Assembly: GCA_964362915.1 (NCBI GenBank)
Contig: CAYIGH010000001.1
Coordinates: 24,056-88,055, forward strand
Direction: 5' to 3'
Length of the DNA: 64,000 nucleotides
From: Candidatus Woesearchaeota archaeon
GTDB lineage: Archaea > Nanobdellota > Nanobdellia > Pacearchaeales > GW2011-AR1
Shown: piece after piece, positions 7,981 to 60,258 of the stretch
How positions within the stretch are numbered: the stretch's first letter is position 1
Layout: the number at the start of each line of letters is the position of its first letter
Notes under the pieces: model-generated
Databases searched by the model: none
Seen by the model: only the letters and a program-made list of their open reading frames with translations
Told to the model about the DNA's origin: nothing
Made by a program: the position numbers and the translations under genes

Positions 7981-7982
7981 AA

Positions 7983-8522
7983 ATGATGGAAAAAGATGAC
8001 TATGCAATTGTTCTAGATTACTTACCCTATGGCTACCCTATGAGCGGAAAGCCGATGCCTATAGCTCAAGCCATAGGCGAGAAAACATTGGTGCTGCTTG
8101 AGCTAATACCTAGAAGGGGGGCAGTTATAGTCCAAAAAGAAAAGGTTTATATAGGCCAAGATAAGAGAGATAAGATACATTATATAGTGGGAAGAATCCC
8201 ATTTGACAAGATCACAGAGACTGCGAAGATCCAACTGCAGGAGTTTGTAACCGGACTAGTTGCGGAGCAGGAAAAGAAATTTGTTGATTTCTTTAATAAA
8301 GCTCAGGCAATTAACACGCGCCTACATCAAATTGAACTTTTGACTGGATTTGGACAAAAGCATACTCAGGAAATAATAAAGACCAGAGAAGAAAAAGCTT
8401 TTGAGTCTTTTGAAGACATAAAGAAACGCGTGCCTAATATCCCGGATCCTAAAAAGGCCATAGAACGCAGGATTTTTGATGAACTTGCTCAAAAACAGAG
8501 ATATCACTTATTTGTAAAGTAA
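7983..8522 (+). CDS. DUF655 family RNA-binding protein
   Basis: N-terminus YAIVLDYLPYGYP is the DUF655 hallmark. Positional conservation after rpoF. Confidence 0.7.
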   Translation: MMEKDDYAIVLDYLPYGYPMSGKPMPIAQAIGEKTLVLLELIPRRGAVIVQKEKVYIGQDKRDKIHYIVGRIPFDKITETAKIQLQEFVTGLVAEQEKKFVDFFNKAQAINTRLHQIELLTGFGQKHTQEIIKTREEKAFESFEDIKKRVPNIPDPKKAIERRIFDELAQKQRYHLFVK

Positions 8523-8523
8523 A

Positions 8524-9033
8524 ATGACAGAAACAATAAAGATTCAGAAGAAAAACTCTGATATAGAAGCAGAACCGGAAATATTGGTAAGAATCTTAGG
8601 ATGCGACATTCCTGGTTCGAAAAATTTGTATCTTGGCTTGACTTATATTAAGGGAATATCGTGGGCTGTTTCTAATGCTATTTGTATCAAGTTGCATATT
8701 CCAAAATCGAAAAAAATATATGAATTATCAAAGGAAGAAATTCAACATATAGAAGAGTTTCTAAGAAAATTGCCTATTCCTGAATTTTTGAAGAACAGAA
8801 GATTTGACCAGGAAACAGGTGAAACTATACATTATTATGGTACTGATTTGGACATAAAGAAAGAGTTTGATATAAAGAGGCTAATAAAGATGAAGAGCTA
8901 TAGGGGAATAAGACATGCTACAGGACAGCCGGTAAGGGGGCAAAAAACAAGGTCACATTTTAGAAACAGAAAAAATAAAAAAACTGCTGGAATAAAAAAG
9001 AAGGAGAAAACTATAGAGGGTAAAGAAAAATGA
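8524..9033 (+). CDS. rps13: 30S ribosomal protein S13 (uS13)
   Basis: RILGCDIPGSK...YRGIRH..GQPVRGQKTRS matches S13 motifs. Confidence 0.85.
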   Translation: MTETIKIQKKNSDIEAEPEILVRILGCDIPGSKNLYLGLTYIKGISWAVSNAICIKLHIPKSKKIYELSKEEIQHIEEFLRKLPIPEFLKNRRFDQETGETIHYYGTDLDIKKEFDIKRLIKMKSYRGIRHATGQPVRGQKTRSHFRNRKNKKTAGIKKKEKTIEGKEK

Positions 9034-9542
9034 AGAGAAAAAAAAGATTATACAGTAGACCAATGAAGCTATATCAAAAGAGCAGAATAGAAGAAGAGAA
9101 TGTGCTAGTTAAAAAATATGGACTAAAGAATAAAAAAGAAATCTGGAAGACACTAGCCAGGATAAATTATTTTAGAAAGAGGGCTATGGCTCTTACCAAA
9201 GTGTCTGATGAAGAACAAAGAGTATTTTTTAGTAAATTGAAAAATATTGGACTAGACATTAAATCTATTCCAGATGTTTTAGCATTAAAAATTGAAGATC
9301 TATTAAGAAGGAGATTGCCTAGTATTGTTGTTTATAAAGGAATTGCTAATACTGTTAAGCAAGCCAGGCAAATGGTTGTTCATAAGAGGATTAGAGTTCA
9401 CGATAAGATTATCGATTCTCCTAGTTATATAGTGCCTGTTTATTTGGAAGATAAGATAACTATAAAAGAAAAAGCTCCTAAAAAATCTGAAACATTTAAA
9501 TCAGAAAATGACAGTGCTGTTCAGGCAGAGGCAGGCATCTAA
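9030..9542 (+). CDS. rps4: 30S ribosomal protein S4 (uS4)
   Basis: 170 aa. RLYSRP...KKYGLKNKKEIWK...S4 RNA-binding domain (QARQMVVHKRIRV). Confidence 0.85.
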   Translation: MKRKKRLYSRPMKLYQKSRIEEENVLVKKYGLKNKKEIWKTLARINYFRKRAMALTKVSDEEQRVFFSKLKNIGLDIKSIPDVLALKIEDLLRRRLPSIVVYKGIANTVKQARQMVVHKRIRVHDKIIDSPSYIVPVYLEDKITIKEKAPKKSETFKSENDSAVQAEAGI

Positions 9543-15705: not shown

Positions 15706-16344
15706 ATGAAAAGAGGACAGTTCTATCTTATTGCTGCTTTTGTAATTATTGTTATTATGACTGGGCTTGCTTATGTTTATATAAAAGTAGAAACGCCAGC
15801 TGAGAGTCTTAATATAAATGATTTGGCTGATGAAGTTCATTACGAGGCAAATAAAGTTGTAGATAATGGAGTTTTTAGCGGGCTAAATGAAGAGCAAATT
15901 TCTGATAACATAAAGAAATTAGCTGAATATTATATTGATAAATATTCTTACATTGACTTATTTATTGTATATGGTGATGAAAATAAAGTTTATATTATAG
16001 AGGTGGCTAAAGTTGTTTTATGCCATAATGGGGAAACTATCAGGGTTGATGAATCTGCACGCCAGAAACATTTGGATCACGGAGATATATTAGGGCCTTG
16101 TACAGGCAATGAAAATCCTGCTGAGTTTAAAGAAGAAAGGTGCGATCCAGAATTGATTAGATGCGAGGACGAATATCTTACCGAGAGGGCGACTAAAAAG
16201 TCTAGTGTTATACCAAGTGGAGGGATAATTATATTAAACTTAGATGATAAAAATATTGATCTTGAAATAAAAACAGGACAAGAAAATTTGTATGTTATAG
16301 CTGAAACACAAGAGGGAGAGGAGAAGAATTTTGTTATACGATAA
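15706..16344 (+). CDS. hypothetical membrane-anchored protein (N-terminal TM, Cys-containing ectodomain)
   Basis: 212 aa. N-terminus QFYLIAAFVIIVIMTGLAYVYI is hydrophobic. Confidence 0.45.
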   Translation: MKRGQFYLIAAFVIIVIMTGLAYVYIKVETPAESLNINDLADEVHYEANKVVDNGVFSGLNEEQISDNIKKLAEYYIDKYSYIDLFIVYGDENKVYIIEVAKVVLCHNGETIRVDESARQKHLDHGDILGPCTGNENPAEFKEERCDPELIRCEDEYLTERATKKSSVIPSGGIIILNLDDKNIDLEIKTGQENLYVIAETQEGEEKNFVIR

Positions 16345-17455: not shown

Positions 17456-19390
17456 ATGAAAATTAGATTTAATGTTTTAATGTTTACATTATTAACGATA
17501 TTTGGTATATTTTTTGCAGGAATTGCTAGTGCAGCTTTAGAATTAAAGACTGTTACTGTGCCGACAACTGTTTCTCATAATCAAGGGGCTATTCCTATTG
17601 TATTTAGTTTGAATAATACTGGAGCATTACAAACTGGACTTGAATGGACTGGCACGCCTAATATTGGAAGCTGGAATCTCGCATCCTTGCCAACAACAAT
17701 AAATGCTGGAGCGCAAATTCAATTTACTGTTATATTGACTATTCCTAAAAATAGTGCAGGAACAATCCAAGCAAACTTAAATGTTGAGAGCAATGAGGGT
17801 GAATCTGATAGTTTAAACCAGCCACTGTCAATAATAATTACTAGAGAGGCCACATTGTCTATCACTAAAACACAAGAATTAACTAGTGAAAGAGACGGTA
17901 TAATCAGCGTAGCTAATACTGGAAATGTACAATTAAGTAATATAGAATTATCTTCTTCAGGTGATTTTACAGTTTCATTTTCCCAGAATAATATAAATCT
18001 ACTTCCTGGAAATTCTTTAAATGTAAATGTTATCAGAGGAAATATAACTGACTTGAAATTCGGTGCAAATAGTGTTACAATAATTGCAAAGGATTTGAAT
18101 GAGAATGTCTCTTCTAATAGTGTTAGTTTTTCTATTGGCAGCGGTTTCTGTAAATCAGGCGAGAAAGGAGAGTTAAATATAAATGATGTTAATATTGAAA
18201 GTGATGGGGAAGATGAAGATGTTTGGAAACCATTAGATACAATTACGATTGATGTAGAAATTGAAAATGATGGTGATGAGGAAATTCAAGATGTTATTGT
18301 TAAGTTGGGCTTGTTTGATTCTAATGGAAATGACTTTGCTGATGATTTAGATTTTGAAAATGAAGATGAGGAAAAGATAGATTTAGGAGATTTGGATGAT
18401 GGCGATGAGGAAACAGTCACATTCAAATTCACAATCCCTGCAGACTTTGATGAAAAGGGAGACTTTAAGCTGGCAATAAAGGCATATAGTGATGATGAAG
18501 GAGAAAATCAGCAATGCACTGACAGATCTTCTGATTTGAGCGATAATTTATTTGAAGATATAGAAATTGAAAGAGAAGATGACGAAGGGAAACTTATAGC
18601 ATTTGATAATATAAAGGCAGAACCTAGCGAAGTTCTATGCGGAGACAGCGTAAAAATAACTACAGACGTATTTAATCTAGGTGATGATGAACAAGATCAA
18701 GTCAAAGTTAATTTGATAAATAATAAACTTGGTATAGACCTTTCTAGAGAGATTAAAGAAGATTTAAGTGAAGGTGATAAGAAAGAAGTAAATTTCGAAT
18801 TTATAATTCCTAAGACATCAACTGACGGCAGTTATACTTTTGATCTTTCTGCAGAATATGATTATAGAAGAGGAACTTATAGAGAGAGCAGTGATGATAC
18901 GACACCTGTTATATTAAAAGTATTTGGATGCGGCGCTATTACTGATGGCAGAGATAAGCAAGTGTCTATTGCTGCTTCTTTGGAGTCTGAAGCAAAGGCA
19001 GGACAGGAATTGGTTGTGAAGACAGTAATAACAAATCTTGGCGCAGACCAGAGGGATTTTGCTGTAACAGCAAGCGGATATGAAAATTGGGCTAAGCTAG
19101 ATTCTATTTCAGATAGACTAATTAACTTAAAAAGTGGAGAGAGCAAGGAGGTAATTGTTAGATTGAATGTTAATTCTGATGCTGAAGGAGAAAAATCATT
19201 TATTATGGAAGCCAGATCAGGCGATAAATTGGAAACCAGAGAAATCGCAGTTAATATTGAGTCAGGGCAAAGGCCTGGGCTTGGAGGCCTTAATCTGGGT
19301 GGAAATAGTTTGGTGTGGATCATTGGAATAATAAACGTTATTTTAATAATTTTAATAATTGTTGTTGCTGCGAGGATTTCTAAGAGATAA
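17456..19390 (+). CDS. secreted acidic surface protein with CARDB-like domains and a C-terminal TM anchor
   Basis: Signal peptide (MKIRFNVLMFTLLTIFGIFFAGIASA). Asp/Glu-rich blocks and CARDB-like beta-sandwich segments. C-terminus is GGLNLGGNSLVWIIGIINVILIILIIVVAARISKR. Confidence 0.6.
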   Translation: MKIRFNVLMFTLLTIFGIFFAGIASAALELKTVTVPTTVSHNQGAIPIVFSLNNTGALQTGLEWTGTPNIGSWNLASLPTTINAGAQIQFTVILTIPKNSAGTIQANLNVESNEGESDSLNQPLSIIITREATLSITKTQELTSERDGIISVANTGNVQLSNIELSSSGDFTVSFSQNNINLLPGNSLNVNVIRGNITDLKFGANSVTIIAKDLNENVSSNSVSFSIGSGFCKSGEKGELNINDVNIESDGEDEDVWKPLDTITIDVEIENDGDEEIQDVIVKLGLFDSNGNDFADDLDFENEDEEKIDLGDLDDGDEETVTFKFTIPADFDEKGDFKLAIKAYSDDEGENQQCTDRSSDLSDNLFEDIEIEREDDEGKLIAFDNIKAEPSEVLCGDSVKITTDVFNLGDDEQDQVKVNLINNKLGIDLSREIKEDLSEGDKKEVNFEFIIPKTSTDGSYTFDLSAEYDYRRGTYRESSDDTTPVILKVFGCGAITDGRDKQVSIAASLESEAKAGQELVVKTVITNLGADQRDFAVTASGYENWAKLDSISDRLINLKSGESKEVIVRLNVNSDAEGEKSFIMEARSGDKLETREIAVNIESGQRPGLGGLNLGGNSLVWIIGIINVILIILIIVVAARISKR

Positions 19391-19944: not shown

Positions 19945-20466
19945 ATGAAAAGGGAACAGGCAGTTTATTTATTTATTAGATATAGTATTTTAGTTGCTTT
20001 GGGATTTGGATTGGAATTTGTTTATAGAATTTTTACTCCGCTAACTATTTATCCTGTTTACTGGATTTTAAACAGTTTATATGGGGCTGTTTTAGTTGAT
20101 AATGACGCAATAGTTATAAAGGGAGTTTTTATTGAGCTAATACCTGCGTGTATAGCTGGTTCTGCATATTATTTATTATTAATATTAAATTTGTCAACAC
20201 CTATGGATATTGGGAAGAGATTAAAGAATATAGTTTATCTTATTTTTAGTTTTCTATTATTAAACATTTTAAGAATATTGGCTATGATCTGGATATTTTT
20301 TGCATTGTATAATTATTTTAATGTAACACACAGAATTGTATGGTATATTGGGAGCACAATAATGGTAGTTGTAATATGGTTTATTGGAGTTTATATATTT
20401 AATATAAAAGAGATTCCTATATACAGCGATATAAAAAATATTATAAAGGATATTAAAAAAAGATAA
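19945..20466 (+). CDS. archaeosortase/exosortase-family-like polytopic membrane protein
   Basis: 173 aa, 5-6 TM. Cys in TM context IPACIAGSAYY (ACxG-like) and a conserved-looking NILRI Arg motif, similar to exosortase/archaeosortase active-site motifs. Confidence 0.4.
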   Translation: MKREQAVYLFIRYSILVALGFGLEFVYRIFTPLTIYPVYWILNSLYGAVLVDNDAIVIKGVFIELIPACIAGSAYYLLLILNLSTPMDIGKRLKNIVYLIFSFLLLNILRILAMIWIFFALYNYFNVTHRIVWYIGSTIMVVVIWFIGVYIFNIKEIPIYSDIKNIIKDIKKR

Positions 20467-20467
20467 T

Positions 20468-21103
20468 ATGGGAATTATAAGTTCAGTTGTAGATTTTGTA
20501 TTGCATATGGATAAGTATTTTGATATTATTATTCAGAATTATGGTGTTTTTACTTATCTCATAATTTTTTTAGTAATTTTTTTTGAGACAGGATTGGTTA
20601 TAACTCCCTTTCTTCCGGGCGACTCTTTAATTTTTATTGCAGGCACTTTTGCAGCGCGAGGATCTTTGAATGTTTTGTTATTATTCTTCTTGCTTTCTGC
20701 TGCCGCGATAGTTGGTGACAGTCTTAATTATTGGATAGGGAATTATATTGGCGAAAGGATATTTACACATAATAGATTTGTAAAGAAAGAATACTTAGAC
20801 AGGACTAAGGAATTTTATAAAAAACATGGGGGGAAGACTATAATTTTAGCAAGATTTATCCCAATTATAAGAACATTTGCTCCGTTTGTTGCTGGCATAG
20901 GAAGAATGGATTATACTAGATTTCTCGGCTTTAATGTTTTTGGCGGAATGATTTGGGTAGGAATATTTGTCTTTGGTGGATATTATTTCGGGCAGCTGCC
21001 TTTTGTTCAGGAAAATTTAACATGGATTATCCTTTTCATTATATTCCTTTCTATAGTACCTGCTATTCTTAAATATTTCAGGAATAAAAAGCTAAAGAAT
21101 TAA
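20468..21103 (+). CDS. DedA/SNARE-associated (TVP38/TMEM64) family membrane protein
   Basis: FETGLVITPFLPGDSLIFIAGTF...GRMDYTRFLGFNVFGGMIWV matches DedA core motifs. Confidence 0.75.
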   Translation: MGIISSVVDFVLHMDKYFDIIIQNYGVFTYLIIFLVIFFETGLVITPFLPGDSLIFIAGTFAARGSLNVLLLFFLLSAAAIVGDSLNYWIGNYIGERIFTHNRFVKKEYLDRTKEFYKKHGGKTIILARFIPIIRTFAPFVAGIGRMDYTRFLGFNVFGGMIWVGIFVFGGYYFGQLPFVQENLTWIILFIIFLSIVPAILKYFRNKKLKN

Positions 21104-21831
21104 TTTTTATCTGCTTCTCTTCTTAGTTTTGCATCTAATATTGATTGAACTTCAAATTTCTCTATTGCCTCTAAAATTTCGCAGTTTGCTACGTTGATAA
21201 CATAACAGTTTTCTTTATCATGAACAATTTCTGTTTTATCACCTGCTTGCAAAACTATCACAGTGTCTTCTTCTCCATGTGGGCTAGTGTCACATGTTGC
21301 ATATATCACATTGGCTTCTTTTGCCAAATCTTCAAAGGGCGCTGCACCAACGACATTTAATTGATTATCTGCTAAAAAAGAAGCTAATGTTCCTATTCCT
21401 ACTCTTGTATATTCACATTGAGTTAAATCTTCTGGATTAACACTTAGATATATAAAATTTGAATTAAAAAATTCTATTCCATTATCAACTACTTTGCCTG
21501 TTAGTGGAATATTATTTTTTCTCGGGTCATTTCTTATATAGAGGTTATATTTTATTTGCGGAGTTATATAGTAATAATAATGAAAAACTGGAATTTCACC
21601 GAATTTTTCTTTTGTGAATGTTAGCCCTTCATATTCAAATGTGTTAGTTTTTGAAAAGAAATAGCTTGATAAAAAGAAGATTCCAATAAGTATCGCCAGA
21701 GTTCCTAGTATCCAATACAACTGGTGATATTTTTTTCTAGATTCTGTTTTTTTCTCAATGTTCTTTTCTATTAATATAGATTCTTCCAGCTTGGGAACTG
21801 CTTTCTCTTTTTTATTAGTCTTTTTTACCAT
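21100..21831 (-). CDS. hypothetical membrane-anchored protein
   Basis: 243 aa. Single TM after a basic N-terminus, extracytoplasmic domain with Cys. Confidence 0.4.
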   Translation of the reverse strand: MVKKTNKKEKAVPKLEESILIEKNIEKKTESRKKYHQLYWILGTLAILIGIFFLSSYFFSKTNTFEYEGLTFTKEKFGEIPVFHYYYYITPQIKYNLYIRNDPRKNNIPLTGKVVDNGIEFFNSNFIYLSVNPEDLTQCEYTRVGIGTLASFLADNQLNVVGAAPFEDLAKEANVIYATCDTSPHGEEDTVIVLQAGDKTEIVHDKENCYVINVANCEILEAIEKFEVQSILDAKLRREADKN

Positions 21832-21871: not shown

Positions 21872-22423
21872 TTAAGGATTAAATAATTTGTATAAAAATG
21901 CGTCAGCTGTAGTCATATCCCCCTCTATAAATACACAATTCTCTTCCTGAAAAACTCTTTTCTCCAATGAATGACTCCATATTATTAGATTGTCTGTACA
22001 ATTTTTTTCAGGCAGGTTTTCTTCGCATTTTTCATAACAAGCTTTTTGCACTCTGGAAACCAGCCCTTGAAGATTTAAAGCGATTTCTCTAAATATTCCC
22101 TCATTTGATGAAACTATATAGAGAGGTTTTCCCTGATATATTGCAGGAGTATTAGAAATATTTACAGCTATGCTTTCTACGTCATTATATGTACTTATTA
22201 AACTTATGCTTGAACCTTGGTATTCAAAATTGATTTTATCTGCTGGAGATTTATCTTTTTGCTTTTGCCGCCCATTATTATCTGTAGCTTGCCCAGGATT
22301 GGAAAAAAAAGCAAATCCTAATGTACTTAAGACTAAAATTGATAACATAAATATACTTAAAATAGTTGTTCTGATCTTTCTTTTTCTTTCTATTTCGCTT
22401 TGCGTTTCTATTCTTCTTATCAT
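21872..22423 (-). CDS. hypothetical membrane-anchored protein
   Basis: 183 aa with an N-terminal TM helix. Confidence 0.4.
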   Translation of the reverse strand: MIRRIETQSEIERKRKIRTTILSIFMLSILVLSTLGFAFFSNPGQATDNNGRQKQKDKSPADKINFEYQGSSISLISTYNDVESIAVNISNTPAIYQGKPLYIVSSNEGIFREIALNLQGLVSRVQKACYEKCEENLPEKNCTDNLIIWSHSLEKRVFQEENCVFIEGDMTTADAFLYKLFNP

Positions 22424-22505: not shown

Positions 22506-25238
22506 TTAAGCTGTTGTAGTCGTTAACTCTGCGCTTGTTGCTGAAGTACCTTTGTACTTCTTGCCAACATCTGTCATTACATTTGCTTGTGTTGTTAAGT
22601 ATTTAGCAGCGTTTGTTGTGTCACCAGCATTGTATCCTGCAACAAGGGTAGCAACTTTTCCTCCTGTTCTGGAGAAAGTTTCTATTAAGAATTGACCTGC
22701 ACCGATACCTGTCTTTGCAGTGAAATCAGCGCCGCATGTCCTTGTGGATACGCTCAGTAATTGAGCAGCTACTGTATTAACACAGCTTCCGCCAATAACA
22801 ACCAAGTTCTTGCCTGCGACAGAGGTTGCTTCCGCATCAGTTACAGAAACAGAGCCAAGTGAAGTAGCTCCTGAGCCCCCTCCTCCTGTGCTTGTAGTTG
22901 TAATCTCTGCAGTGTTTTCTGCTAGGTAAATATTGGCATATACCTGCTCATTTGGATAACTTATTGTTGCTTTGTACTGGTCAGAATCTCCTTGATCAAT
23001 AGTTGCAATTGTACCGAACAAGTCTGCTTCTTTAGTCATCTTGCTATTACTAGCAAGAGCAATAGCATCCCATGTTCCGTCAGCCTGCCATGTTCTTTTT
23101 ACATCGTCAACACCAATTCCGTCATTACTGTCTCCGCCACTCTCTAATGTAACAACAAGAGCCTGATATAGTGAATTGTCATCTTTTTCCTCAAAGACAA
23201 TAATTGCTGGTAGAAGCACATTAGCTCCTCCATCAGGATTTTTTAAGTATAGATTAGTTGCGTTTCTTGTATTATCTCCAGCACCTGTAATGTTAAATGT
23301 AAGCGCCCCTATAGTGCCTGAAACAGAATTTCTATTAGCAGTTGCTCCTAAAGTAGATAGGTTCAACTGAGTTGTTGTGCTACCGAATGTAATGTTAACT
23401 GCTATATTTGCCGCATTACCATCAAAATTTGCTGTTGGAGTAGTAAATGTTATATCGGTAAAACTATCTCCATCTGGAATCTTTATCGTAGTTAACGCAT
23501 TAGTGCCAACGTCTCCATCCCAGTCATTAAGCGAGATGTTAAGCAAGGGCTCGTAGAAAGCTAACTTTGCGCCGCCTTTTGTTTGTATTGTGGGGTACGC
23601 AACTGCAGCGCCTGTTCCAGAGCTATCAGGGTAATTTAATGTTACCCAATTATTAGCATCGGATGATGTTCCATTGTATTTAACATCGTAAACTTTTCCA
23701 CCTATACTGGCGGTTCCTACTCCATCTGATGTAACAGTAGTTTCAATAGTATCTCCAGAGAAGACATCTATAAAGGTTGCCTTATCTCCGCTAATACCTG
23801 CTGTGGTTGAATTTGTAATTCCACTTACTCTGATTAGCCTGCCATTCTCTTCGTTGCCAACAACGACATAATCGTCTTTGAATAGATTTTGTTTTTCAAG
23901 AACAGTTATATTATGCCCATCGCTGTCTCTTTGCAGTTCAACTTGACCTGGTGTAGTCCAGTTTTTAGCAAACTGAATTGAAGCAGTTTTGCCGTCCTTA
24001 TTTGTAAAGGTGACTTCCATTTTATCGTCCCCGTTATAACCCATCTTTATATCTTCTCTATTTGCTGTATCATCGTCCTTAATGGACAAGCCTGAAAAAT
24101 CAAGTTTAAAGGATCCGAATACAGGGTCTTTCATTGATGTTCCTGCAACGACAGCATCCTTATCACTGTTAGGCGCACGTATGCTAACTATTATTTTAGT
24201 AGCTGCTGTTGTTCCACCTGTAATGGTTGTTGATGTGCCGTCAACTACGGTGTCTTCTTCACCCATAGTTACCGAGCTTCCTTGTGTTGTTGATAACTTG
24301 ACTTTCTCTGCGCCTGCAATAACGCTTGCAGATAGCTTGAGATTTGTCTCGTCAGCATTTGTAATTGCTATTGTAACACCGTTTATTTTTTTAGAAGCGT
24401 TTTCACTTACTTCTTTTGTTTCTGACTTTCCTTCACTATCTGTAACTTTAACAGTTGCAGCAGTATCTGATGCAGAAACTAATTCAACAGTATATGTTTT
24501 ACCAGTGATTGTTACTTCTGCTGAAGGATCGTCGCTACTTAAAGCAACTTTTTCTGCAGTTTTTAACAAGACTAATTCTGTATCGCTTGTTGCAGAAGCG
24601 ATTGTAAACTTCTGTCCAAACATTGTTATATCCTGGCCCTCTGAATCAGCATGCGTTAAATTTACGGCTTTGCTGAATGTTAGAGATGCATTGTAGATAT
24701 AATTTGCTGTTGTTGTACTTGTAGTAATTAAAAACTGAGGGTCTAGATCGCTTGTTGGCTGTTTGCCAGCATAGGTTATCTGAGGATTGAACCCTAGCTC
24801 AATTGTTTGTGTATAACTCGAGTCTACATTTCCTGAAAAACTACCATCTTTTAAGACAGTTGGAAGATCAGTTTTAGTCACAACAGATTTTACTGTATTT
24901 AATGTGTCATTAATGAAGAGTTTTGTCCCTCCAGAAAACAATGGAGCCGCTTCTCCTGTTACTGAAGTAGATGTTCCTGTGCCTCCGCCTTTTGCTGTAG
25001 CTTCAGCTAACTTAGTAGATAAATAACTACTAATATCTGTTACAGCAACAAGGTCAGTATATGCGGCATTTGCGCCGCCATGAACGATGGCAACATCAGC
25101 TGCACCTCCAGCTACGAATGGTGCTGGAAAGTTTGCTGCGGCAGCCAAAGCTACTGTAGAACTTAACATTGCAGTACTAGCAAGAACTGAACCTATTTTT
25201 TTGAATGAAAATCTCATTTTTTTTAAACCTCCTTTCAT
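22506..25238 (-). CDS. S-layer-like secreted surface protein (Thr/Ser/Gly/Ala-rich)
   Basis: 910 aa. Signal peptide MRFSFKKIGSVLASTAMLSSTVALAAAA. Low-complexity T/S/G-rich beta-rich sequence with many NxT/S sequons. Confidence 0.55.
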   Translation of the reverse strand: MKGGLKKMRFSFKKIGSVLASTAMLSSTVALAAAANFPAPFVAGGAADVAIVHGGANAAYTDLVAVTDISSYLSTKLAEATAKGGGTGTSTSVTGEAAPLFSGGTKLFINDTLNTVKSVVTKTDLPTVLKDGSFSGNVDSSYTQTIELGFNPQITYAGKQPTSDLDPQFLITTSTTTANYIYNASLTFSKAVNLTHADSEGQDITMFGQKFTIASATSDTELVLLKTAEKVALSSDDPSAEVTITGKTYTVELVSASDTAATVKVTDSEGKSETKEVSENASKKINGVTIAITNADETNLKLSASVIAGAEKVKLSTTQGSSVTMGEEDTVVDGTSTTITGGTTAATKIIVSIRAPNSDKDAVVAGTSMKDPVFGSFKLDFSGLSIKDDDTANREDIKMGYNGDDKMEVTFTNKDGKTASIQFAKNWTTPGQVELQRDSDGHNITVLEKQNLFKDDYVVVGNEENGRLIRVSGITNSTTAGISGDKATFIDVFSGDTIETTVTSDGVGTASIGGKVYDVKYNGTSSDANNWVTLNYPDSSGTGAAVAYPTIQTKGGAKLAFYEPLLNISLNDWDGDVGTNALTTIKIPDGDSFTDITFTTPTANFDGNAANIAVNITFGSTTTQLNLSTLGATANRNSVSGTIGALTFNITGAGDNTRNATNLYLKNPDGGANVLLPAIIVFEEKDDNSLYQALVVTLESGGDSNDGIGVDDVKRTWQADGTWDAIALASNSKMTKEADLFGTIATIDQGDSDQYKATISYPNEQVYANIYLAENTAEITTTSTGGGGSGATSLGSVSVTDAEATSVAGKNLVVIGGSCVNTVAAQLLSVSTRTCGADFTAKTGIGAGQFLIETFSRTGGKVATLVAGYNAGDTTNAAKYLTTQANVMTDVGKKYKGTSATSAELTTTTA

Positions 25239-25482
25239 CTTATTCTTCTTAGCGGCTTTTAGCCCCTCTTTGAGGAGATTGCACTTTTAATTAGCAATCT
25301 GCTATTTAAACTGAATTGAATGGAGAAAACTTATTTGATTTAAAAAGCTTTCTATTATTTTAAACTAGTTGAATGAAAAACACTCTTAGGACAGTTATTT
25401 ATTTATAAAGGTTGTGGTGTTACTATAACTTACAACAAGTTAATCTTTCTCTATAATATTTATTTTCCATCTTTAAATTTAG

Positions 25483-25586: not shown

Positions 25587-25946
25587 ATGGCGCACAAATC
25601 AAAGACAAGGGAAATAACTATCGTCGAGAATGAAGGCGCTTTTAGTTTATTTTTCAAAAAATTCTCTGGAGAAAAAAAGGAATATGATTTTGAAGGTATT
25701 TCTGCTTTAAGAAGATTATTGTCAAATGAAAAAGCTCGATTGCTTCATACTATTAAGACTGAAAAACCTTTGTCTATTTATGAATTGGCTAAAATTTTGA
25801 ATAGGGATATAAAAGCGGTAAAAAAAGATATAAAACTTATGGAAAGATTTGGATTTATTGATTTAATTTATGAAAAAAAAGGCAAAAGAGAAAGACTTAG
25901 GCCCATAATTGTGGTTGATTCTATTTACATTAATCTAAAGATTTAA
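25587..25946 (+). CDS. putative winged-HTH transcriptional regulator
   Basis: 119 aa. LSIYELAKILNRDIKAVKKDIKLMERFGFIDL is an HTH-like segment. Confidence 0.45.
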   Translation: MAHKSKTREITIVENEGAFSLFFKKFSGEKKEYDFEGISALRRLLSNEKARLLHTIKTEKPLSIYELAKILNRDIKAVKKDIKLMERFGFIDLIYEKKGKRERLRPIIVVDSIYINLKI

Positions 25947-25952
25947 TTATAT

Positions 25953-26462
25953 TTATCCATAGCAAAGCTTTAATGTGGCAGAGATAGTTCCTGGATAGGC
26001 AGGTATTAATATTTCAGCTCCTCTTGCTGAATAAGAGCAATCGCCTTGATATATAATTATTATTTCTTTTGATATTGTATTTGTTGAATATATTGATTTA
26101 AATTCATATCCTTTGATATTAGCTTGCTCATTTACAAGAAAGCTCTTAGTTATAACATTGTTAAATGTCTTGTTTAATACTATGCATGGGTCTTCTCCTG
26201 AGATACACAAAGAAAGTCCGTTATTGCATTCTTTAATAAGTTCGTTTAATTTTAGATAGTTCGGTTCATAGGAAATAGAGCAGGAAGTTGTTAATTCCAT
26301 TGCACTTTCTAAAAATTGATGAATGTCTTTACTTTCTTGCACTAATGTATTATTGCCTCTGATTGAAAATCCCAGTATAATTGCTCCTACAATAGCAATT
26401 ATTACTACTATAAAAACGAATCCTACCATTTCTTCTTGGGCTTTTTTAAATTTTATTTTCAT
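25953..26462 (-). CDS. class III signal peptide (pilin-like) protein 4
   Basis: N-terminus MKIKFKKAQEEMVGFVFIVVIIAIVGAIILGF. Overlaps the upstream gene by 4 nt. Confidence 0.55.
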   Translation of the reverse strand: MKIKFKKAQEEMVGFVFIVVIIAIVGAIILGFSIRGNNTLVQESKDIHQFLESAMELTTSCSISYEPNYLKLNELIKECNNGLSLCISGEDPCIVLNKTFNNVITKSFLVNEQANIKGYEFKSIYSTNTISKEIIIIYQGDCSYSARGAEILIPAYPGTISATLKLCYG

Positions 26463-26986
26463 TTATCTATATTTTTGCCTGAGGCATAAATTCTGCCTAG
26501 TTCGCACTTTGTATATCCTCCCTTTTCTCTAGTCCAATAACAAATAGTAACAAAGGCACTCTTAGGAGAACCTATTTCTTCATTTTTAATTAAGGTTATT
26601 GTTTTACAATTTGGATAATTTGCTTTATCACATTCGTTTTTTTCTTCTGAATAAACATTTTCTATTTGAAGGAAATCTAGATTCCAAAACTCGTCATATG
26701 ATCTTCTCTCTTTTAATGAGAATGCTTTGTCTAAATCTATGCAATTAGAACATGTATGTGTTGTTAATACAAATTCAGGGGTTGATGCTAGTTTTCGTAC
26801 AGCCTCTAAAGCTTCTTCATCCTGCAAAGAAGAGGCTGTTTTTCTAATGTTCGATAAACTTATAGAAAAATAGAATAAAGCAACTATGGCTAAAAATATA
26901 ATTAAAGCAACTAAAACAAACGCCATCTGCTGTATTTTAAGCTGGGCTTTTTTATTATTAAAATAGCTTACATGAAAGTGCTTCAT
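26459..26986 (-). CDS. class III signal peptide (pilin-like) protein 3
   Basis: N-terminus ...NNKKAQLKIQQMAFVLVALIIFLAIVALF. Overlaps the upstream gene. Confidence 0.5.
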   Translation of the reverse strand: MKHFHVSYFNNKKAQLKIQQMAFVLVALIIFLAIVALFYFSISLSNIRKTASSLQDEEALEAVRKLASTPEFVLTTHTCSNCIDLDKAFSLKERRSYDEFWNLDFLQIENVYSEEKNECDKANYPNCKTITLIKNEEIGSPKSAFVTICYWTREKGGYTKCELGRIYASGKNIDK

Positions 26987-27914
26987 TTTTCCTCCTTATT
27001 ATTTCAGCATCAAAAAACAATTCTCTTAAATCTAACGAGCTATTAAAAGCAAATAGTTTATTTGTATATGATGATAAATCTACTTCTAAATTAGAAGCAC
27101 AACCTTTGGAATTTAATAATAAACTCTTCGAATAATAGAGTAAGCTTAATTCTGATGTTCTTTTCATTAATCTTTTTAGATGGCACTCATAAACTTCTGG
27201 AGAGGAAAAGATTGCAGCATATAAAAGAGCAGATGTTTCGAAGTAAACTCTATCTGCGAACTTCTTTTTTAGACTTCCTTTTATATTTCCGCTAGAATCA
27301 AGAGAAATATCAATATCGCAGCCAGAAGTTGTAAAACAAACCTTTTTTGCTTCTTTTTTGCATTCAGAAGCTGAAGAAGTTATATTTATGCTTATTCCTA
27401 AGTCTAATATTTCATCTTCTATCTCTCTTGGGGGATTAACAAAGCAGAAATTTTCATCAGATGGCCATAAATATATTAAATCAGCTATTTTAAATGGCAT
27501 ATTGAATGGTTTAGCAAAAACAAAATATTCCTTTCCTTCTATTACATCTTGGGAGAAGATATATTTATTATTAAATGTAGAAGGAAAACCTGGCTTGCCC
27601 CATTCATCATTTAATAGTTTGGTAGCGAGACTTATTTTTTGCGTTCCGAAAGTTCCCTGAGAGGATTTACATTCATTATAGATGCGCGTTTCTTCTGGAA
27701 TTGAAATTTTTGTTATCTTGCCTGTTTCTAAATTCGTTTCTATTGGTGTTAATATTATGCCCAGTTGTTTTCCAAGTACTGTATCTTGCTTTGTTTTTTC
27801 TGTCTTTATAAATTCTGTTGAGGCATATACTGCTAAAAATATAATTACTGCTCCTACTATTATTGCAAAAATCCAAGAAAAACTAAACTCAAGGGCTTTT
27901 TTGTTGAATATCAT
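26958..27914 (-). CDS. class III signal peptide (pilin-like) protein 2
   Basis: N-terminus MIFNKKALEFSFSWIFAIIVGAVIIFLAV. Two-nt gap from the upstream gene. Confidence 0.55.
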   Translation of the reverse strand: MIFNKKALEFSFSWIFAIIVGAVIIFLAVYASTEFIKTEKTKQDTVLGKQLGIILTPIETNLETGKITKISIPEETRIYNECKSSQGTFGTQKISLATKLLNDEWGKPGFPSTFNNKYIFSQDVIEGKEYFVFAKPFNMPFKIADLIYLWPSDENFCFVNPPREIEDEILDLGISINITSSASECKKEAKKVCFTTSGCDIDISLDSSGNIKGSLKKKFADRVYFETSALLYAAIFSSPEVYECHLKRLMKRTSELSLLYYSKSLLLNSKGCASNLEVDLSSYTNKLFAFNSSLDLRELFFDAEIIRRKNEALSCKLF

Positions 27915-27915
27915 T

Positions 27916-28404
27916 TTATCTGCTTAGAGTAACAAGTGCCTCAAATTGATCTCTTTTTGTCTTTAGTTCTATTCTATTCTCTCTAACTGGAATGCAAAAA
28001 AATTCATTAGTCTTTACATGCTCTAATTTTATTGAGGATAGCGAGGAATCGCAGGCCTTTTGAGGCGGATAGAGAAAAACATTTCCATTGCTATTTATAA
28101 ATGCTTTTTTTATATTATTATATTCTTGAGGGGCCTGAGCTATATTGCCGAAACATACTAACTCAATTCCTGAAGGGATTGTTGCAGGATATTTTTCATT
28201 GGGAAAGATGTCCTGATGAATTGTTGACTGCCATGCTTCTTCTATGTATTCTTCTAAATCATTATAGAAAAGGCTGATTTCTGTGCATTTACTAAGTGAA
28301 ATAAAGCTTCTAATTACATAGAAAGCAATTCCGACTATAGCAATTATAACGATTATTGAAAAAATCATACTAAAAGATATGCTAAACTGGCCTCTTTTTT
28401 GCAT
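27916..28404 (-). CDS. class III signal peptide (archaeal type IV pilin-like) protein 1
   Basis: N-terminus MQKRGQFSISFSMIFSIIVIIAIVGIAF, a KRG|Q prepilin-peptidase-type site followed by a hydrophobic helix. Confidence 0.6.
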   Translation of the reverse strand: MQKRGQFSISFSMIFSIIVIIAIVGIAFYVIRSFISLSKCTEISLFYNDLEEYIEEAWQSTIHQDIFPNEKYPATIPSGIELVCFGNIAQAPQEYNNIKKAFINSNGNVFLYPPQKACDSSLSSIKLEHVKTNEFFCIPVRENRIELKTKRDQFEALVTLSR

Positions 28405-28617
28405 GTTGGAAGAAGGCTGATAGGATAATTAAAGGTTTCGTGGGAAACATCAATCCTGGAATTAAGACAGCAATATGAACTGAATATCTAAGGATCTTCT
28501 TAGTTTAGGTTATGGGTGGAAAATTGAGCTATTTTAATAGACTATTTTGATACAACTAATTTAGAGGATTATGTAAGGAGAGAATTTACTAGTTAGATTA
28601 CTGAATTAGTTGTTAAT

Positions 28618-36615: not shown

Positions 36616-37148
36616 TTTATGAATCCGCTGAAGATTCTTATCTTTTGAGAGAAGAAGTTCTAAACTATTCTAAGGGAAAAAGAGTTTTAGATGTGGGAAG
36701 TGGTTCTGGGATTCAGGCTCAAGCAGCCTCAGATGCAGGGGCTAAATCTGTTTTGGCTGTTGATATTGACGAAGAAGCTGTTAATGAATTAAAAAAGAAA
36801 GGAATTAAAGTGAGAAAGTCTGATTTATTTTCAAATGTGAAAGGTAAATTTGATTTGGTTGTTTTTAATCCTCCTTATTTGCCTATGGATAAAAGAGAGG
36901 ATAAAGCAAGTGCATTGAATACTTCTGGCGGAAAGAAAGGAGATGAAATTATAATTAGATTTTTGAGAAATGTTAAAAAATATTTAAATAAAGATGGAAT
37001 TGTGCTGATTGTTATTTCTTCTTTGACTCCTAGAAAGAAGATATTGGGGGTTTTGAAAAGAGAAGGATTGAAAAAACAAATTGTTTCAGAAAAGAAACTT
37101 TTTATGGAGAGTTTGGAAGTTTGGGAGATAAGTCGTTTAGAGTTTTAA
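36612..37148 (+). CDS. HemK/PrmC-like N5-glutamine methyltransferase (Mtq2-type)
   Basis: VLDVGSGSGIQAQAAS (motif I) and VVFNPPYLP (NPPY) motifs. Confidence 0.7.
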   Translation: MIYESAEDSYLLREEVLNYSKGKRVLDVGSGSGIQAQAASDAGAKSVLAVDIDEEAVNELKKKGIKVRKSDLFSNVKGKFDLVVFNPPYLPMDKREDKASALNTSGGKKGDEIIIRFLRNVKKYLNKDGIVLIVISSLTPRKKILGVLKREGLKKQIVSEKKLFMESLEVWEISRLEF

Positions 37149-37508
37149 TCTGTGAATCGCCTGATCCTGCCAGAGCTTTCTATAAAAATAAAGATAGTAT
37201 GAAAGTTCTGAAGAGCTTTTTGCAAAGATTATTTTGTTATTTGTTATTATTTCATTTTTTATATAAAGTGGGAGCAATTCAAATATATGGATGTCGTATT
37301 TTGGATTTTTTGCCTGAATTGATAGTGTTTTTTGATAAATTTCTTTTGCTTTTTTTATATTTCCAGTAACAATGCATATATCAATGTCGCTCCTTTGTGT
37401 TGATTTTCCGTTTATATAAGAGCCATAAAGAAGAACTGCAAGAACTTTATTTTTAAATTTGCCAAAATCTGTTTTGATTTGCTCTATAATTTCAGATTGC
37501 ATTTTCAA
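37137..37508 (-). CDS. nucleotidyltransferase-domain protein (MntA-type antitoxin)
   Basis: LAVLLYGSYINGKSTQRSDIDICIV, the GS...DxD motif. Confidence 0.65.
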   Translation of the reverse strand: MKMQSEIIEQIKTDFGKFKNKVLAVLLYGSYINGKSTQRSDIDICIVTGNIKKAKEIYQKTLSIQAKNPKYDIHIFELLPLYIKNEIITNNKIIFAKSSSELSYYLYFYRKLWQDQAIHRLKL

Positions 37509-37884
37509 GTTTTTTTAATATTTTTTTAATTTGGGGAAGGAGGATTTGAATTGATTCTTTAGCTATTATATCGTCTGTTTTGTTGTATTTATGAATAATC
37601 CTGTTTCTTAAGCCATTTGCATCTTCAAGGATTTTTGCTTCATTATCTCCTATAATTTTAAGCTGCATTAATTTTTCAATATTTTTATAGTCATCCTCTA
37701 CTAATTTCTCCTTGTCTTTTAGAAGCATGGCGGCTATATCTGAAATTACTTCTACAATCTCTTGAAATGCTTTATATGATGCTAGCTTAGATTTTTCATC
37801 CTGAGAAGAAATCCATTCTTCTATTTCTATTATCCTCTTTTCTGCTAATTCAATTTTTTCCAGGTATCTTTTCTTTCTCTCCAT
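37492..37884 (-). CDS. HEPN-domain protein (HepT/DUF86-type toxin)
   Basis: R-x4-H motif GLRNRIIHKY. Overlaps the downstream MNT gene by 17 nt. Confidence 0.6.
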   Translation of the reverse strand: MERKKRYLEKIELAEKRIIEIEEWISSQDEKSKLASYKAFQEIVEVISDIAAMLLKDKEKLVEDDYKNIEKLMQLKIIGDNEAKILEDANGLRNRIIHKYNKTDDIIAKESIQILLPQIKKILKKLENAI

Positions 37885-37973: not shown

Positions 37974-38768
37974 CTATCTTAACTCAGATTCAATAGCTTG
38001 TTGAAATGCAGAGAAAGGCTGGGCTCCGCTTATAAGCCTTCCATTGATAAAGAAAGCAGGTGTACCTTGAACCCCGTCACGCTGTCCTTCATCCATGTCT
38101 TTCTTAACAAGAGCTGCCATTTTTCCAGATTGAAGACAGGAATCAAATTGCTGAATATTTAACCCTATTTCATTAGCCCATTGTCTAAAACTTCCTATAC
38201 TTAAGGCTTGCTGATTTTCAAATATTTTATCATGCATTGCCCAATATCCGTCGTTTCCTTTTTGTTCCCCTGCACATCTTGCAGCCTCAGCAGCCTTTTG
38301 TGCATTAGGATGAAAACTTAAAGGAAAATCCTTATACACTAATTTTACTTTCCCGCTAGTGATATATTCACTCTCAATCTGAGGCAATGTTTCAGCATAA
38401 AATTTCCCGCAGAAAGGGCATTCATAGTCAGAATATTCAACCATAATTACAGGAGCATTTTCATTTCCTTTATAAGGCGCACCTTCAATATTTATTTTAG
38501 CCATGGCGGGCTCTGATGGGGGCTCTTGGATAGATGGATTAACTATATTCTCTTCTTGGATAACATTTCCTGTTATACTTCCGCCATTTCCAGAAAAGAA
38601 AACCCCATAGCTATTAATCAAAGTTAAAATAAATGTAGCAGAAACAAGAACAGTTAGCAATTTCATTCTGTCAAGATTTTTTAAATTATAAAAAAAATTG
38701 CTGTTTACTTTAACATTAGATGTGTCTGCTATAATTGATTCTTTAGCTTCTATTCTTTCTTCTTCCAT
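37974..38768 (-). CDS. DsbA-like thiol:disulfide oxidoreductase, membrane-anchored
   Basis: CPFC active site inside a thioredoxin-fold context (YSDYECPFCGKFY). N-terminal TM. Confidence 0.75.
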   Translation of the reverse strand: MEEERIEAKESIIADTSNVKVNSNFFYNLKNLDRMKLLTVLVSATFILTLINSYGVFFSGNGGSITGNVIQEENIVNPSIQEPPSEPAMAKINIEGAPYKGNENAPVIMVEYSDYECPFCGKFYAETLPQIESEYITSGKVKLVYKDFPLSFHPNAQKAAEAARCAGEQKGNDGYWAMHDKIFENQQALSIGSFRQWANEIGLNIQQFDSCLQSGKMAALVKKDMDEGQRDGVQGTPAFFINGRLISGAQPFSAFQQAIESELR

Positions 38769-38806: not shown

Positions 38807-41800
38807 TTAATATCCCATAAATATCTTTCTTCTCATATGTACTTTTAAATAAATAACCACAATGACAGCAACTACAATCAATGATAAACTAATCCATATT
38901 ATGCCACTAAGTGCTCCTCTGTTCTCAGAAGGTATTTTTTCCTGCTCTCCTGCTTCAGAGCCACTATCTACCCCTTTTTCTCCGCTTTCTATTGGTGGTT
39001 GACTTAATTCTCCCTCTGATTCAGATGTTGTTGCATTCTCTTTCTTTGGTTTTGAAACACTGGCCCCTCCAGAGCCCCCACCACTACTACTTCCTCCAGA
39101 ACTTCCTCCTGAAGAAGTGGATTCTCTATATGTGGAAAACTCGCAGAATGGAATCTGCCATATGCAATTTGTCGAATCAATTAAAGTTGCTTCAGATGTT
39201 CTATCAACACAATTTGCTCCATTATTATCACAATGAAACAATTGATTACATGTTCCGCTAAATGGTATCTTTACTCTGCAGACCTCTGGATATAAGTTAT
39301 TTATTATCTTGTCTCTTGTCTCAGAAGTTAATCCTGCGTATGTTGAAGTATTAATAATTGAACCTGCCGTGCTAATTGTCCTAACCTTATCATTCAATCC
39401 TGTTTTAGTCAATGAGGCATTAATAAATTCAAAGTAATTACTACCATCGGTATTATTGAGCTTAATATTAATACGTCTTCCTTCTGTATAGTTAGTTTTC
39501 CTGCCAGCATTAGCTCCACATACTTGTCCTTGTATATGCTCATAAACGTTATTTTGATCAATATCATATGATACTGTCCAGCCAGATGGTGCCTTAATCC
39601 TAGTCACAAAACTGCAGAAACCGCATTTATTATTTAGGGTAGCAGTGACGAATGAACTACATTTGCTAATAGCGCATTTATTTTTGTCATCACAAGCTTT
39701 TAGCTTATAATAATAAGTCGTCCCATTAACTAGATTATAGCGCAACGAACGAACTCCGCCGTCATTGTAAATATCTGCTTTATGCCATAACTTATAATCT
39801 CTTACATTGGTGCTAAGCACTCCAACATCATTAATTGTTGCATTTAATGTAATACATCTTGAATCATTTCCGTAAAACTCAAGGCTCCCATTTGCAGGCT
39901 TATTGGTATCATACATAATTAAAGCAGAGTCTGGATATTCTTCTATCTTAACGCCTACAACTTGCGGCGTTTTAGTATCAGTATAATTCGCGGCATTTAC
40001 ACCTGTGCTAGAGCATACAGATAGAAAATCACAATCCCAATCAAAGCAATCTATATTGCCGTCGTTATCATTGTCTATATTATCAAAGCAATCCTCATAT
40101 TGCACATATCCCTTCCTTAATATGTCCTCAAACTTTGCTGCGTCTGCTCCATAGTCAAAACAGCCTGCAATTTCAAAGTCAACAGCTCCAGGTGTAGTAT
40201 AACCAGGGCCAGCTGTATCAGTTGGAAATGTAACATTGCCAGTTCCAGGATTCCCAATTGTTGCAGCATATACTCTCATATCTTTTGTTGAATCATATAA
40301 TGTAGGGAATCTATTCAAGTCTGCCTTTTGTACAGCTATCATAGGCCCGCCAATTTCAGAACACATTAGCTTCTTCCATACATTTAATTTGATATCACTA
40401 GCTGCCCACTGGGAATTTTCGCATGTATAAGCATTAAATGTTTCTACTGCTTTTTCTTTAGTAGCATTCCATTCAGAGGCATATCTAAATCTAAATTCGT
40501 ACCCTTTAGCAGAAGAATTATGGTTTAATTCACATCCTCCGCTAGTTAAACCATCTGTATCCAAATAAACAAAGAATATTACTGTATCATTTCCGTTGCC
40601 AATTCTTTCAATTCCGTAACTCGTTAATTTTTCTTTGTTGCATAAAGAGGCATTAGTAAAGTCCAACATATTAGCTCCAAATCCAAATCCATCTCCCATA
40701 TCTTTCATTCCAATACCACAAATATCTACACTTCTTTGACTTATCCCTGCCTCAGGACAATTATCTACTGCTATTGGCACAGGAGCCCCTGTTTCTATAC
40801 TATTAAATGATTCAACTGTTCCAGCTGTATTGCACCATCCAGTAACCCATTTGCATCCACTTCCACATGCTCCCTGAGTTGTAGCATTAAAGCAGGTTGG
40901 CTCACATCCATAAGAAGTAGCATTACAATATAGATTTGCGTTACATAATGTGGCATTATTTACTAAAGTTGTATTGCTCCAGCATTGGTCCATGACATTA
41001 GTACAGTAATTTCCATTAGAATTCCACCAACATCCATTAGTAGCATTACATCCTACAGCCACAGATGTATAACTCCAGCATTCTTTGCTCCAATCAACTT
41101 CGCATCTTGGGTTAGATTCTGGGAACCATCCGCAACTGATATTTATAATAGTCTTATTCGTGCAGAATGTTTGATTACCATTATATTTCCAGCATTCAGC
41201 CCCGGATGCTCCTCCAACTCCACCTCCTCCCACAACGGAGCCTCCAGAAAATCCTCCTCCTTTAGGATCACACCATCCAGGATTATTCCACTTACATCCT
41301 GATATTGCTGCGCAATTTGTTTGGTTATTAGAACTTGTTGCATTATAGCAAGTATTTGATTGCTGTTCTTCACACCAGCCATTTTCTGCCTTCCATAAAC
41401 ATCCTGAAGTAGTTGTACAGCTAGTTGAAGAAGTTATATTAAAGCATGCTGGCTCACATGTTCCGCCTCCTCCTCCATAATCTCTCCAATTGCAGCTAAC
41501 TTGAGTAACACCATTACAACTAGCTTTAGTTGTTTGGCTCCAGCATCTGTCAAAATTATTTGCACACCATGCGCTGTTAATTCCTCCAAATGTTTCATTT
41601 CTCCACCAACACCCGTTATTTTCACAATTTGATTGAGCATTATAATTCCAACAACTAGTGCTCCAGTTTACTTCACAATGGGGTTGTGACCATGTATCAA
41701 CTCTCCAACTGCATCCAGCAGTAGTGCTACATGAGGAATTTTCATATTTCTGCCAACAACTCTTTGGCTTGAAATCATTATGGTCACACCATCCTCCATC

Positions 41801-56086: not shown

Positions 56087-56145
56087 TTCCCATATATAAA
56101 CCCTATTGTATATATATTTAAAATGAATGAATTAAATGATTTCTT

Positions 56146-58336: not shown

Positions 58337-58366
58337 CTTTTTAAAGAAAAGAATGATTTAAATTAA

Positions 58367-59332: not shown

Positions 59333-59397
59333 TTGAATAGTGATTAGATATATTTCAATATAGCAACCTTTTTATACAAAATCTTTGTCTAATACCA

Positions 59398-60255: not shown

Positions 60256-60258
60256 AAA

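Follow-up and report, generated by a model that had tools for sequence, protein, structure and literature searches.

A conserved operon in Pacearchaeota probably encoding four new families of type IV pilin-like proteins

Described pilin-like systems and the Pacearchaeota locus

The Epd pilins of Methanococcus maripaludis (EpdA-E and other DUF361 proteins) begin with a short basic leader that ends in Gly or Ala, with Lys or Arg at position -2 and Gln at position +1 of the cleavage site, and they are processed by EppA, a peptidase that requires this Gln and whose known sites are KGQV, KGQL, KGQI and RAQI (PMC4371748, PMC3875500). They include several different minor pilin-like proteins, of which some are large and some have genes that do not lie with those for assembly (PMC4371748, PMC3875500). 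The locus considered here, positions 25953-28404 of a 64-kb stretch of contig CAYIGH010000001.1 (hereafter the window, meaning the whole stretch of DNA that was analysed), resembles the Epd set in these respects. A listing of open reading frames (ORFs) across the window shows that the locus is filled exactly by four consecutive minus-strand ORFs, g1 to g4, each starting with a short basic segment followed by a hydrophobic helix, as a preliminary description of this DNA had claimed, and three of them carry the same kind of site (KRGQ in g1, KKAQ in g3 and KKAQ in g4). In kind, the four proteins fall among the archaeal type IV pilin-like proteins, a well-known class in which they are probably new families of minor-pilin-like character. 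They differ from the Epd and other DUF361 proteins in the lack of Glu at +5, in the absence of any DUF361 or Class_IIIsignal match, in their unrelated globular domains and, in the case of g2, in the presence of Phe, Leu or Ile instead of Gln at +1.

With moderate confidence, we read the operon as coding for four type IV pilin-like subunits that would be processed by a class III signal peptidase at a K-G/A↓Q site, be assembled by machinery encoded elsewhere in the genome, and form a heteromeric unit at the surface layer (S-layer) for adhesion or envelope contact.

Pilin-like genes located apart from an assembly machinery are well documented in archaea. Several pilin genes of Haloferax and Methanococcus do not adjoin pilB/pilC, and PilB homologues have been described as orphans too (PMC4371748). 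Haloferax PilA1-6 and the sugar-binding proteins of the Sulfolobus bindosome likewise combine a pilin-like N-terminus with genes that are not beside pilB/pilC (PMC4371748; 10.64898/2026.04.22.720090), although their sites are RAVS, DAVS or KG-L, whereas the genes described here form a fixed four-member operon of distinct families that lack transporter or binding-protein domains. The preliminary description had drawn attention to the lack of an assembly ATPase and platform; this lack is confirmed for the window, but it is not unusual, since archaeal pilin genes are often unlinked to pilB/pilC. Within the same lineage, Hamm et al. (2024) reported two conserved type IV pilus-like loci (CpaF, TadC, PilA, FlaF) across cluster-2 DPANN archaea, including Pacearchaeota (PMC11291902), and a 2026 survey found type IV filament (TFF) systems in some DPANN (bioRxiv 10.64898/2026.04.22.720090). 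The cluster-2 loci would supply an ATPase, a platform and possibly a major pilin, although the CpaF, TadC and coiled-coil proteins that define them are absent from the window and from the flanks of the operon in 78 of the 80 related species considered below. Finally, the S-layer-binding archaellum stators ArlF/ArlG (FlaF/FlaG) share with g1-g4 an N-terminal hydrophobic helix, a small beta-rich domain and an S-layer theme; stators of this type were nevertheless rejected as an explanation, because no archaellin or ArlF/G family or fold was matched, and no archaellum genes are present in the window.

When organisation is considered, the nearest counterparts are bacterial. GspH-I-J-K of type II secretion and FimU-PilV-W-X of type IVa pili are operons of four pilin-like genes whose products are expected to form a tip or priming complex. 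As in the archaeal locus, four different pilin-like genes are combined in one operon, one of them is large (about 320 aa, like GspK), and only the N-terminal helix is shared. The resemblance is organisational only, as g1-g4 show neither homology to these proteins nor the G↓FxxxE/N_methyl motif, and real T2SSJ and T2SSK proteins, taken as a positive control, were recognised by Pfam whereas g1-g4 were not.

Gene layout, conservation and putative promoter of the operon

All four genes are transcribed from the minus strand. The first, g1 (28404-27916), codes for a pilin-like protein of 162 aa with the leader MQKRG, then QFSISFSMIFSIIVIIAIVGIAFYVI and then a small Cys-containing alpha/beta domain. 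It is followed by g2 (27914-26958), the large subunit with 318 aa, in which the leader MIFNKKA precedes LEFSFSWIFAIIVGAVIIFLAVYA and in which the part past the N-terminus has eight conserved Cys, a beta domain and a C-terminal helical bundle. The 175-aa product of g3 (26986-26459) starts with the leader MKHFHVSYFNNKKA, which ends in NNKKA and is followed by QLKIQQMAFVLVALIIFLAIVALFYF, and that of g4 (26462-25953; 169 aa) with the leader MKIKFKKA followed by QEEMVGFVFIVVIIAIVGAIILGF; six Cys are conserved in the former and four are invariant in the latter. The predicted sites therefore read KRG↓Q in g1, KKA↓L in g2, KKA↓Q in g3 and KKA↓Q in g4, with a hydrophobic helix after each. The 160-318 aa given earlier for the mature domains are in fact precursor lengths (162-318 aa), and removal of the leaders would leave mature proteins of 157-311 aa. 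Since 4-8 Cys are conserved per protein across the four families, the sequences suggest that the globular parts are extracellular, disulfide-bonded domains.

The tight packing of the genes was described correctly as regards the overlaps, which amount to 29 nt between g2 and g3 and to 4 nt between g3 and g4; the gap between g1 and g2 is 1 nt and not 2. Because the packing is tight and overlapping, with one copy of each gene, a complex of roughly equal stoichiometry is favoured over a single major filament subunit.

Conservation was followed in related loci taken as the cluster with 10 kb on either side, at one genome per species, which gave 80 loci from metagenome-assembled genomes labelled Pacearchaeota, Nanoarchaeota or Woesearchaeota. 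The order g1-g2-g3-g4 is kept in 70 of these 80 species-level loci according to tblastn; in the other 10, at least one gene had no tblastn match, in some cases clearly because the contig ends there. Spurious ORFs or chance as the source of g1-g4 are ruled out by this cross-species conservation. In some relatives the start of g3 was truncated by gene callers, and the motif is present in frame just upstream. For g1, 33 homologues were detectable, all of them unnamed. A word-indexed search with g2 returned 861 homologues, again all unnamed and none with a Pfam domain, and an exhaustive profile search extended this family to 1667 representatives at E<=1e-3, nearly all of about 300-340 aa. As judged from these searches, g1-g4 represent four unannotated families that do not detectably resemble any described domain and that are conserved in the related genomes sampled.

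A putative BRE/TATA-like promoter element, GAAACCTTTAATTA, lies upstream of g1 (28426-28439, minus strand), and its TTTAA starts 29 nt before the g1 ATG. The corresponding motif, RAAR-NN-TTTAAYTA, is found upstream of g1 in 34 of 70 orthologous loci, the background rate being 0.018 per 150 nt, and among those 34 loci the TTTAA begins 28 nt before the ATG in 27. Because the element is conserved at a fixed short distance from the ATG, we infer that g1-g4 are transcribed together from a promoter of their own, as an operon whose mRNA has no leader or almost none.

The N-terminal signal and the families behind it

The published substrate criteria applied here ask for Gly, Ala or Ser at -1 and a charged residue at -2 and, in the case of EppA, also for Gln at +1 (PMC4371748, PMC3875500). 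In g1-g4 a basic leader of 5-14 residues precedes the hydrophobic domain, in which 22-26 uncharged residues come after the first few positions, and the leaders of the orthologues are alike. At -1, Gly or Ala is present in 62 of 71 g1 and 67 of 77 g2 sequences; in g3 this position is Ala or Gly in 75 of 77 and Ser in the other 2 (G/A/S in 77/77), and in g4 it is G/A/S throughout (74/74). Lys or Arg occupies -2 in 52/71 (g1), 60/77 (g2), 67/77 (g3) and 70/74 (g4). Gln is found at +1 in 43 of 71 g1 orthologues and in every g3 (77/77) and g4 (74/74) sequence, and g2 has Phe, Leu or Ile there. Each family adds its own conserved stretch to this site: [KR][GA]Q-xx-(L/I/M)SFGMIFSII in g1; KK[GA]-FEFSFxWIFAIIVGA in g2, with the consensus KKG↓FEFSFGWIFAIIVGA, Glu at +2 in 70 of 77 and E9 conserved in at least 90%; [KR][AG]Q-xKIQ(Q/E)MAF in g3; and [KR][GA]QEE(I/M)VGF in g4, where E+3 and G+6 are both invariant (74/74 each). 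The prepilin or class III signature that had been proposed for these proteins thus stands in so far as a -2/-1/+1 site is conserved across about 70 species, but it does not extend to family models, none of the pilin or class III hidden Markov models (HMMs) recognising g1-g4.

A comparison is offered by p183 (21872-22423, minus strand) and p243 (21100-21831, minus strand), two conserved N-terminally anchored proteins without a pilin-type site that are encoded after an S-layer-like gene of the window. With the same crude rule applied to both sets, [KR][GA] was found before the hydrophobic segment in 267 of 303 g1-g4 orthologues and in 5 of 82 orthologues of p183 and p243. The preliminary description had named ordinary signal anchors devoid of a conserved cleavage motif as the outcome that would speak against a pilin-type signal; this is not what the alignments show, and the view that the N-termini of g1-g4 are not generic signal anchors is supported at the sequence level.

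One further ORF, at 15706-16344 on the plus strand (212 aa), has a class III-like start, MKRG↓QFYLIAAFVIIVIMTGLAYVYI, and is the sole additional case of such an N-terminus in the 64 kb. Its product has no Pfam or NCBIfam match and a single detectable relative in the related loci (in L025, 33% over 90 aa); it may represent an additional pilin-like subunit and conceivably a major one.

Behind this common start, the four proteins part company. The likeness detected among g1-g4 by profile-profile comparison is confined to the first 45-55 residues or so (g1-g2: probability 96%, E 1e-9, 43 columns; g1-g4: 90%; g3-g4: 77%), and beyond the N-terminus each is a separate family, which bears out the earlier statement that the mature domains are very different. 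Type IV pilin-like proteins typically have this arrangement, in which a common N-terminus is followed by globular domains that are unrelated to each other. The AlphaFold2 model of g2, built from a 70-sequence alignment with a predicted local distance difference test (pLDDT) score of 92, consists of a helix at residues 12-59, a beta-rich middle and a C-terminal helical bundle, and that of g1 (34 sequences; pLDDT 87) of a helix at residues 11-59 and then a small alpha/beta domain with beta strands. An N-terminal helix of about 48 residues has the length expected of pilin alpha-1.

Assembly machinery, the S-layer neighbourhood and competing explanations

The N-termini of the four proteins are organised in three parts, namely a leader ending in [KR][GA], a Gln (Phe, Leu or Ile in g2), and about 22-26 uncharged residues opening the helix of about 48 residues. 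If the operon does encode four pilin-like subunits, the precursors would be inserted into the membrane by the Sec pathway, and a class III signal (prepilin) peptidase with an EppA-like K-G/A↓Q specificity would cut the leader off at the cytoplasmic face, after which the mature subunits would join via their hydrophobic N-terminal helices. A type IV filament ATPase and platform encoded elsewhere would then lift the subunits from the membrane as a small heteromeric assembly at or through the S-layer, which might be either a short fibre or a complex of minor-pilin or pseudopilin-like character that acts as a tip or in priming. Its role would be adhesion or envelope contact in a host-dependent archaeon.

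Candidates for such an ATPase do occur in the clade. Among the 80 related loci (1.21 Mb), two contain a T2SSE-family ATPase. In one of them (L030, from a Pacearchaeota metagenome-assembled genome), a PilB/GspE-type ATPase of 609 aa (7492-9321, minus strand; Pfam E 3e-109) sits between Pop5 and g1 and is divergent from g1. Its nearest relatives are PilB proteins of Patescibacteria, and the locus is not regarded as an assembly chimera, because syntenic archaeal genes flank the ATPase on both sides. The other (L069) contains a weak T2SSE protein of 758 aa. Orphan PilB-like T2SSE ATPases of about 600-640 aa without the usual N-terminal domain were also found among ribosomal, FtsZ and fibrillarin genes on three DPANN contigs (L090, 10001-11821; L091, 5101-6954; L173, 10001-11911), with no platform or pilin genes adjoining. 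A further ATPase match (L174/175) was discarded, since it proved to belong to a bacterial pseudopilin locus; there (L174, 11884-18029, minus strand), a PilB-like ATPase is combined with a 1329-aa protein and with three classical pseudopilin genes, whose products of 165, 367 and 186 aa have the N-terminal motif G↓F(T/S)LLE, an arrangement that resembles the archaeal quartet in organisation only.

Several results weigh against the assignment of g1-g4 to a type IV filament system, and the first group of them concerns machinery. The 64-kb window contains no secretion ATPase or platform, as judged by Pfam searches of the larger and the membrane ORFs, a Walker-A regular expression and local T2SSE/T2SSF/A24 HMMs, and no prepilin peptidase, as judged by the same Pfam searches, a GxGD regular expression and the local A24 HMM. 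Likewise, 78 of 80 species have no machinery gene adjoining the cluster, and with genomes of about 0.7 Mb (PMC8407392), two ATPases in 1.21 Mb correspond roughly to one randomly placed gene per genome; because the count is that of random placement, the two are taken to indicate that the clade has such ATPases and not that these are linked to the operon. The local HMMs had been built from generic bacterial PilB loci among the matches listed in a metagenome scan with an ATPase alignment, and with these bacterial-derived PilC/PilD models no T2SSF platform or A24 peptidase was found in 1.47 Mb of related loci, which is a weak negative, given that the same HMM set missed the ATPase of L069. In addition, according to one preprint, DPANN genomes lack the components of type IV pili (10.1101/2020.05.14.094862).

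The second group concerns the proteins themselves. Position +5 lacks the Glu that characterises EppA substrates as well as bacterial pilins, and acidic residues at +2/+3 are confined to g2 and g4. None of the Pfam and NCBIfam models for pilins or class III signals reached threshold with g1-g4, and a scan of 146 orthologous N-termini at E<=1 returned no Class_IIIsignal, Pilin_N, N_methyl or NCBIfam equivalent; apart from transmembrane-type noise below threshold, the sole trace was TIGR04205 ('class III signal peptide'), which 10 members matched, likewise below threshold and with E 0.002 at best. The comparison with known pilin structures that had been suggested was equally unproductive: no solved pilin fold matched the g1 or g2 models, and the search of the PDB with the g2 model (Foldseek) gave nothing below E 0.2. 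Profile searches of PDB sequences with g1 and g4 found no match either, PilE1 at E 0.6 not being significant. At the level of models, membership of g1-g4 in known pilin families therefore fails, and the claim is based on the conserved architecture of what looks like a signal peptide.

The neighbourhood of the operon matters for the explanation that comes next. Immediately after g4, on the plus strand, lies a gene for a helix-turn-helix (HTH) regulator of the HVO_A0114 family (25587-25946; Pfam PF25212, E 2.5e-18), which is not a pilin; it is convergent with g4 and divergent from a minus-strand gene (22506-25238) for an S-layer-like protein of 910 aa with a signal peptide and without a C-terminal membrane anchor. 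The copy of this protein in the window has no Pfam match, and its orthologues carry S_layer_C. The HTH gene follows g4 on the opposite strand in 71 of the 72 loci with sequence there, at a median gap of 10 bp, and the S-layer-like gene lies beyond it in 65 loci. Upstream neighbours are less constant (Pop5 in 37 of 68 loci, an HtrA-like protease in 24 of 68). A second BRE/TATA-like match, AAAGCTTTTTAAAT (25338-25351, minus strand), is located some 100 nt ahead of the S-layer-like gene, in the stretch between this gene and the divergent HTH regulator.

The main competing explanation, though an unlikely one, is that g1-g4 are never cleaved and are instead bitopic (N-in, C-out) proteins of a pseudoperiplasmic complex that tethers, spaces or helps to build the S-layer, in which case the conserved motif would serve helix packing or insertion rather than recognition by a peptidase. 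The absence of nearby machinery in 78 of 80 species and of any match to a pilin HMM or fold would be expected under this explanation, and so would the proximity of the operon, via the HTH gene, to the main S-layer-like gene in 65-71 of about 72 loci, at a side of the operon that is more conserved than the upstream one; furthermore, the 910-aa S-layer-like protein has no transmembrane anchor and therefore needs a membrane partner. In a plain anchor, however, nothing calls for a small residue at -1 that hardly varies, a basic one at -2 and Gln at +1, and p183 and p243 lack the site (5/82). These two proteins, which are co-oriented with the S-layer gene, are also the better anchor candidates and may be the membrane partners of the S-layer-like protein, and conserved charges at +2/+3 in the start of a hydrophobic helix are atypical of simple anchors.

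A more far-reaching version of the pilin-like interpretation would see in the quartet a lineage-wide, self-contained envelope organelle of Pacearchaeales, that is, an independently evolved counterpart of the bacterial four-minor-pilin tip or priming complex, with four new folds and a genetic coupling to the S-layer gene, which would either work with an unusual partner (an orphan PilB-like ATPase such as that of L030, or none) or be a host-contact device of obligate episymbionts. We regard this version as speculative and quite unlikely.

Less probable again is the idea that the class III signal is real, yet the proteins are surface binding proteins or enzymes that use a pilin-like N-terminus for display only, as in the Sulfolobus bindosome. 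It is common across archaea for non-pilin proteins encoded apart from TFF loci to bear class III signals (bioRxiv 10.64898/2026.04.22.720090), and the globular domains of g1-g4 are indeed all different and novel; on the other hand, neither Pfam nor NCBIfam detected a binding-protein or enzyme domain in them, no ABC transporter adjoins the operon, and a fixed, stoichiometric four-gene operon with overlapping genes in about 70 species points to a complex. Finally, several pilin genes of H. volcanii that are unlinked to pilB/pilC can each act as major pilin (PMC4371748), but it is highly improbable that each gene of the operon is likewise an alternative major pilin with its own filament, since the Haloferax PilA1-6 paralogues have a nearly identical H-domain, whereas here the four H-domains differ and each belongs to its own conserved orthologous family, and since sizes of 162-318 aa and a strict one-copy-each operon are unlike interchangeable major subunits.

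A large part of the window serves the cell envelope, with S-layer genes, a sortase and a glycosylation neighbourhood. The host is a Pacearchaeota (DPANN) archaeon, a tiny symbiont of about 30% G+C, and it was assigned as such because a PACE-CTERM putative S-layer protein (17456-19390, plus strand; NCBIfam E 6e-172) and a pacearchaeosortase (19945-20466, plus strand; NCBIfam E 2e-57) are encoded in the window; archaeal Pop5, AglB/STT3 and glycosylation genes are encoded there as well, and DNA of the window is also present on contigs from 0.1 µm filters of Hainich groundwater. The glycosylation neighbourhood (46413-51405 and 53491-62611) comprises AglB/STT3, a second STT3/PMT_2-like protein, GT2 and GT4 transferases, a flippase-like protein and dTDP-sugar enzymes. 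A DsbA-like thioredoxin that is extended at its N-terminus (37974-38768, minus strand; Pfam E 2e-39) is consistent with the formation of disulfides outside the cytoplasm in the numerous Cys-rich surface proteins of the window. Next to it, a secreted protein of 1977 aa, very rich in Cys and Trp and without a Pfam match (38807-44740, minus strand), is possibly a giant surface protein or adhesin. Two toxin-antitoxin-type gene pairs of the nucleotidyltransferase/HEPN (HepT-like) kind are found at 3101-4218 (plus strand) and 37137-37884 (minus strand).

No established view is overturned by this locus, as archaeal pilin genes unlinked to an assembly machinery are common. As pilin-like proteins, however, g1-g4 would add four sizeable unannotated families to the type IV filament repertoire, of which g2 alone has more than 1600 representatives. 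Pacearchaeota are abundant and uncultivated, have very small genomes and appear to be attached to hosts. An operon that is kept in nearly every related genome sampled, lies near an S-layer gene and bears a pilin-type signal is a concrete candidate for an attachment or envelope apparatus of these archaea.

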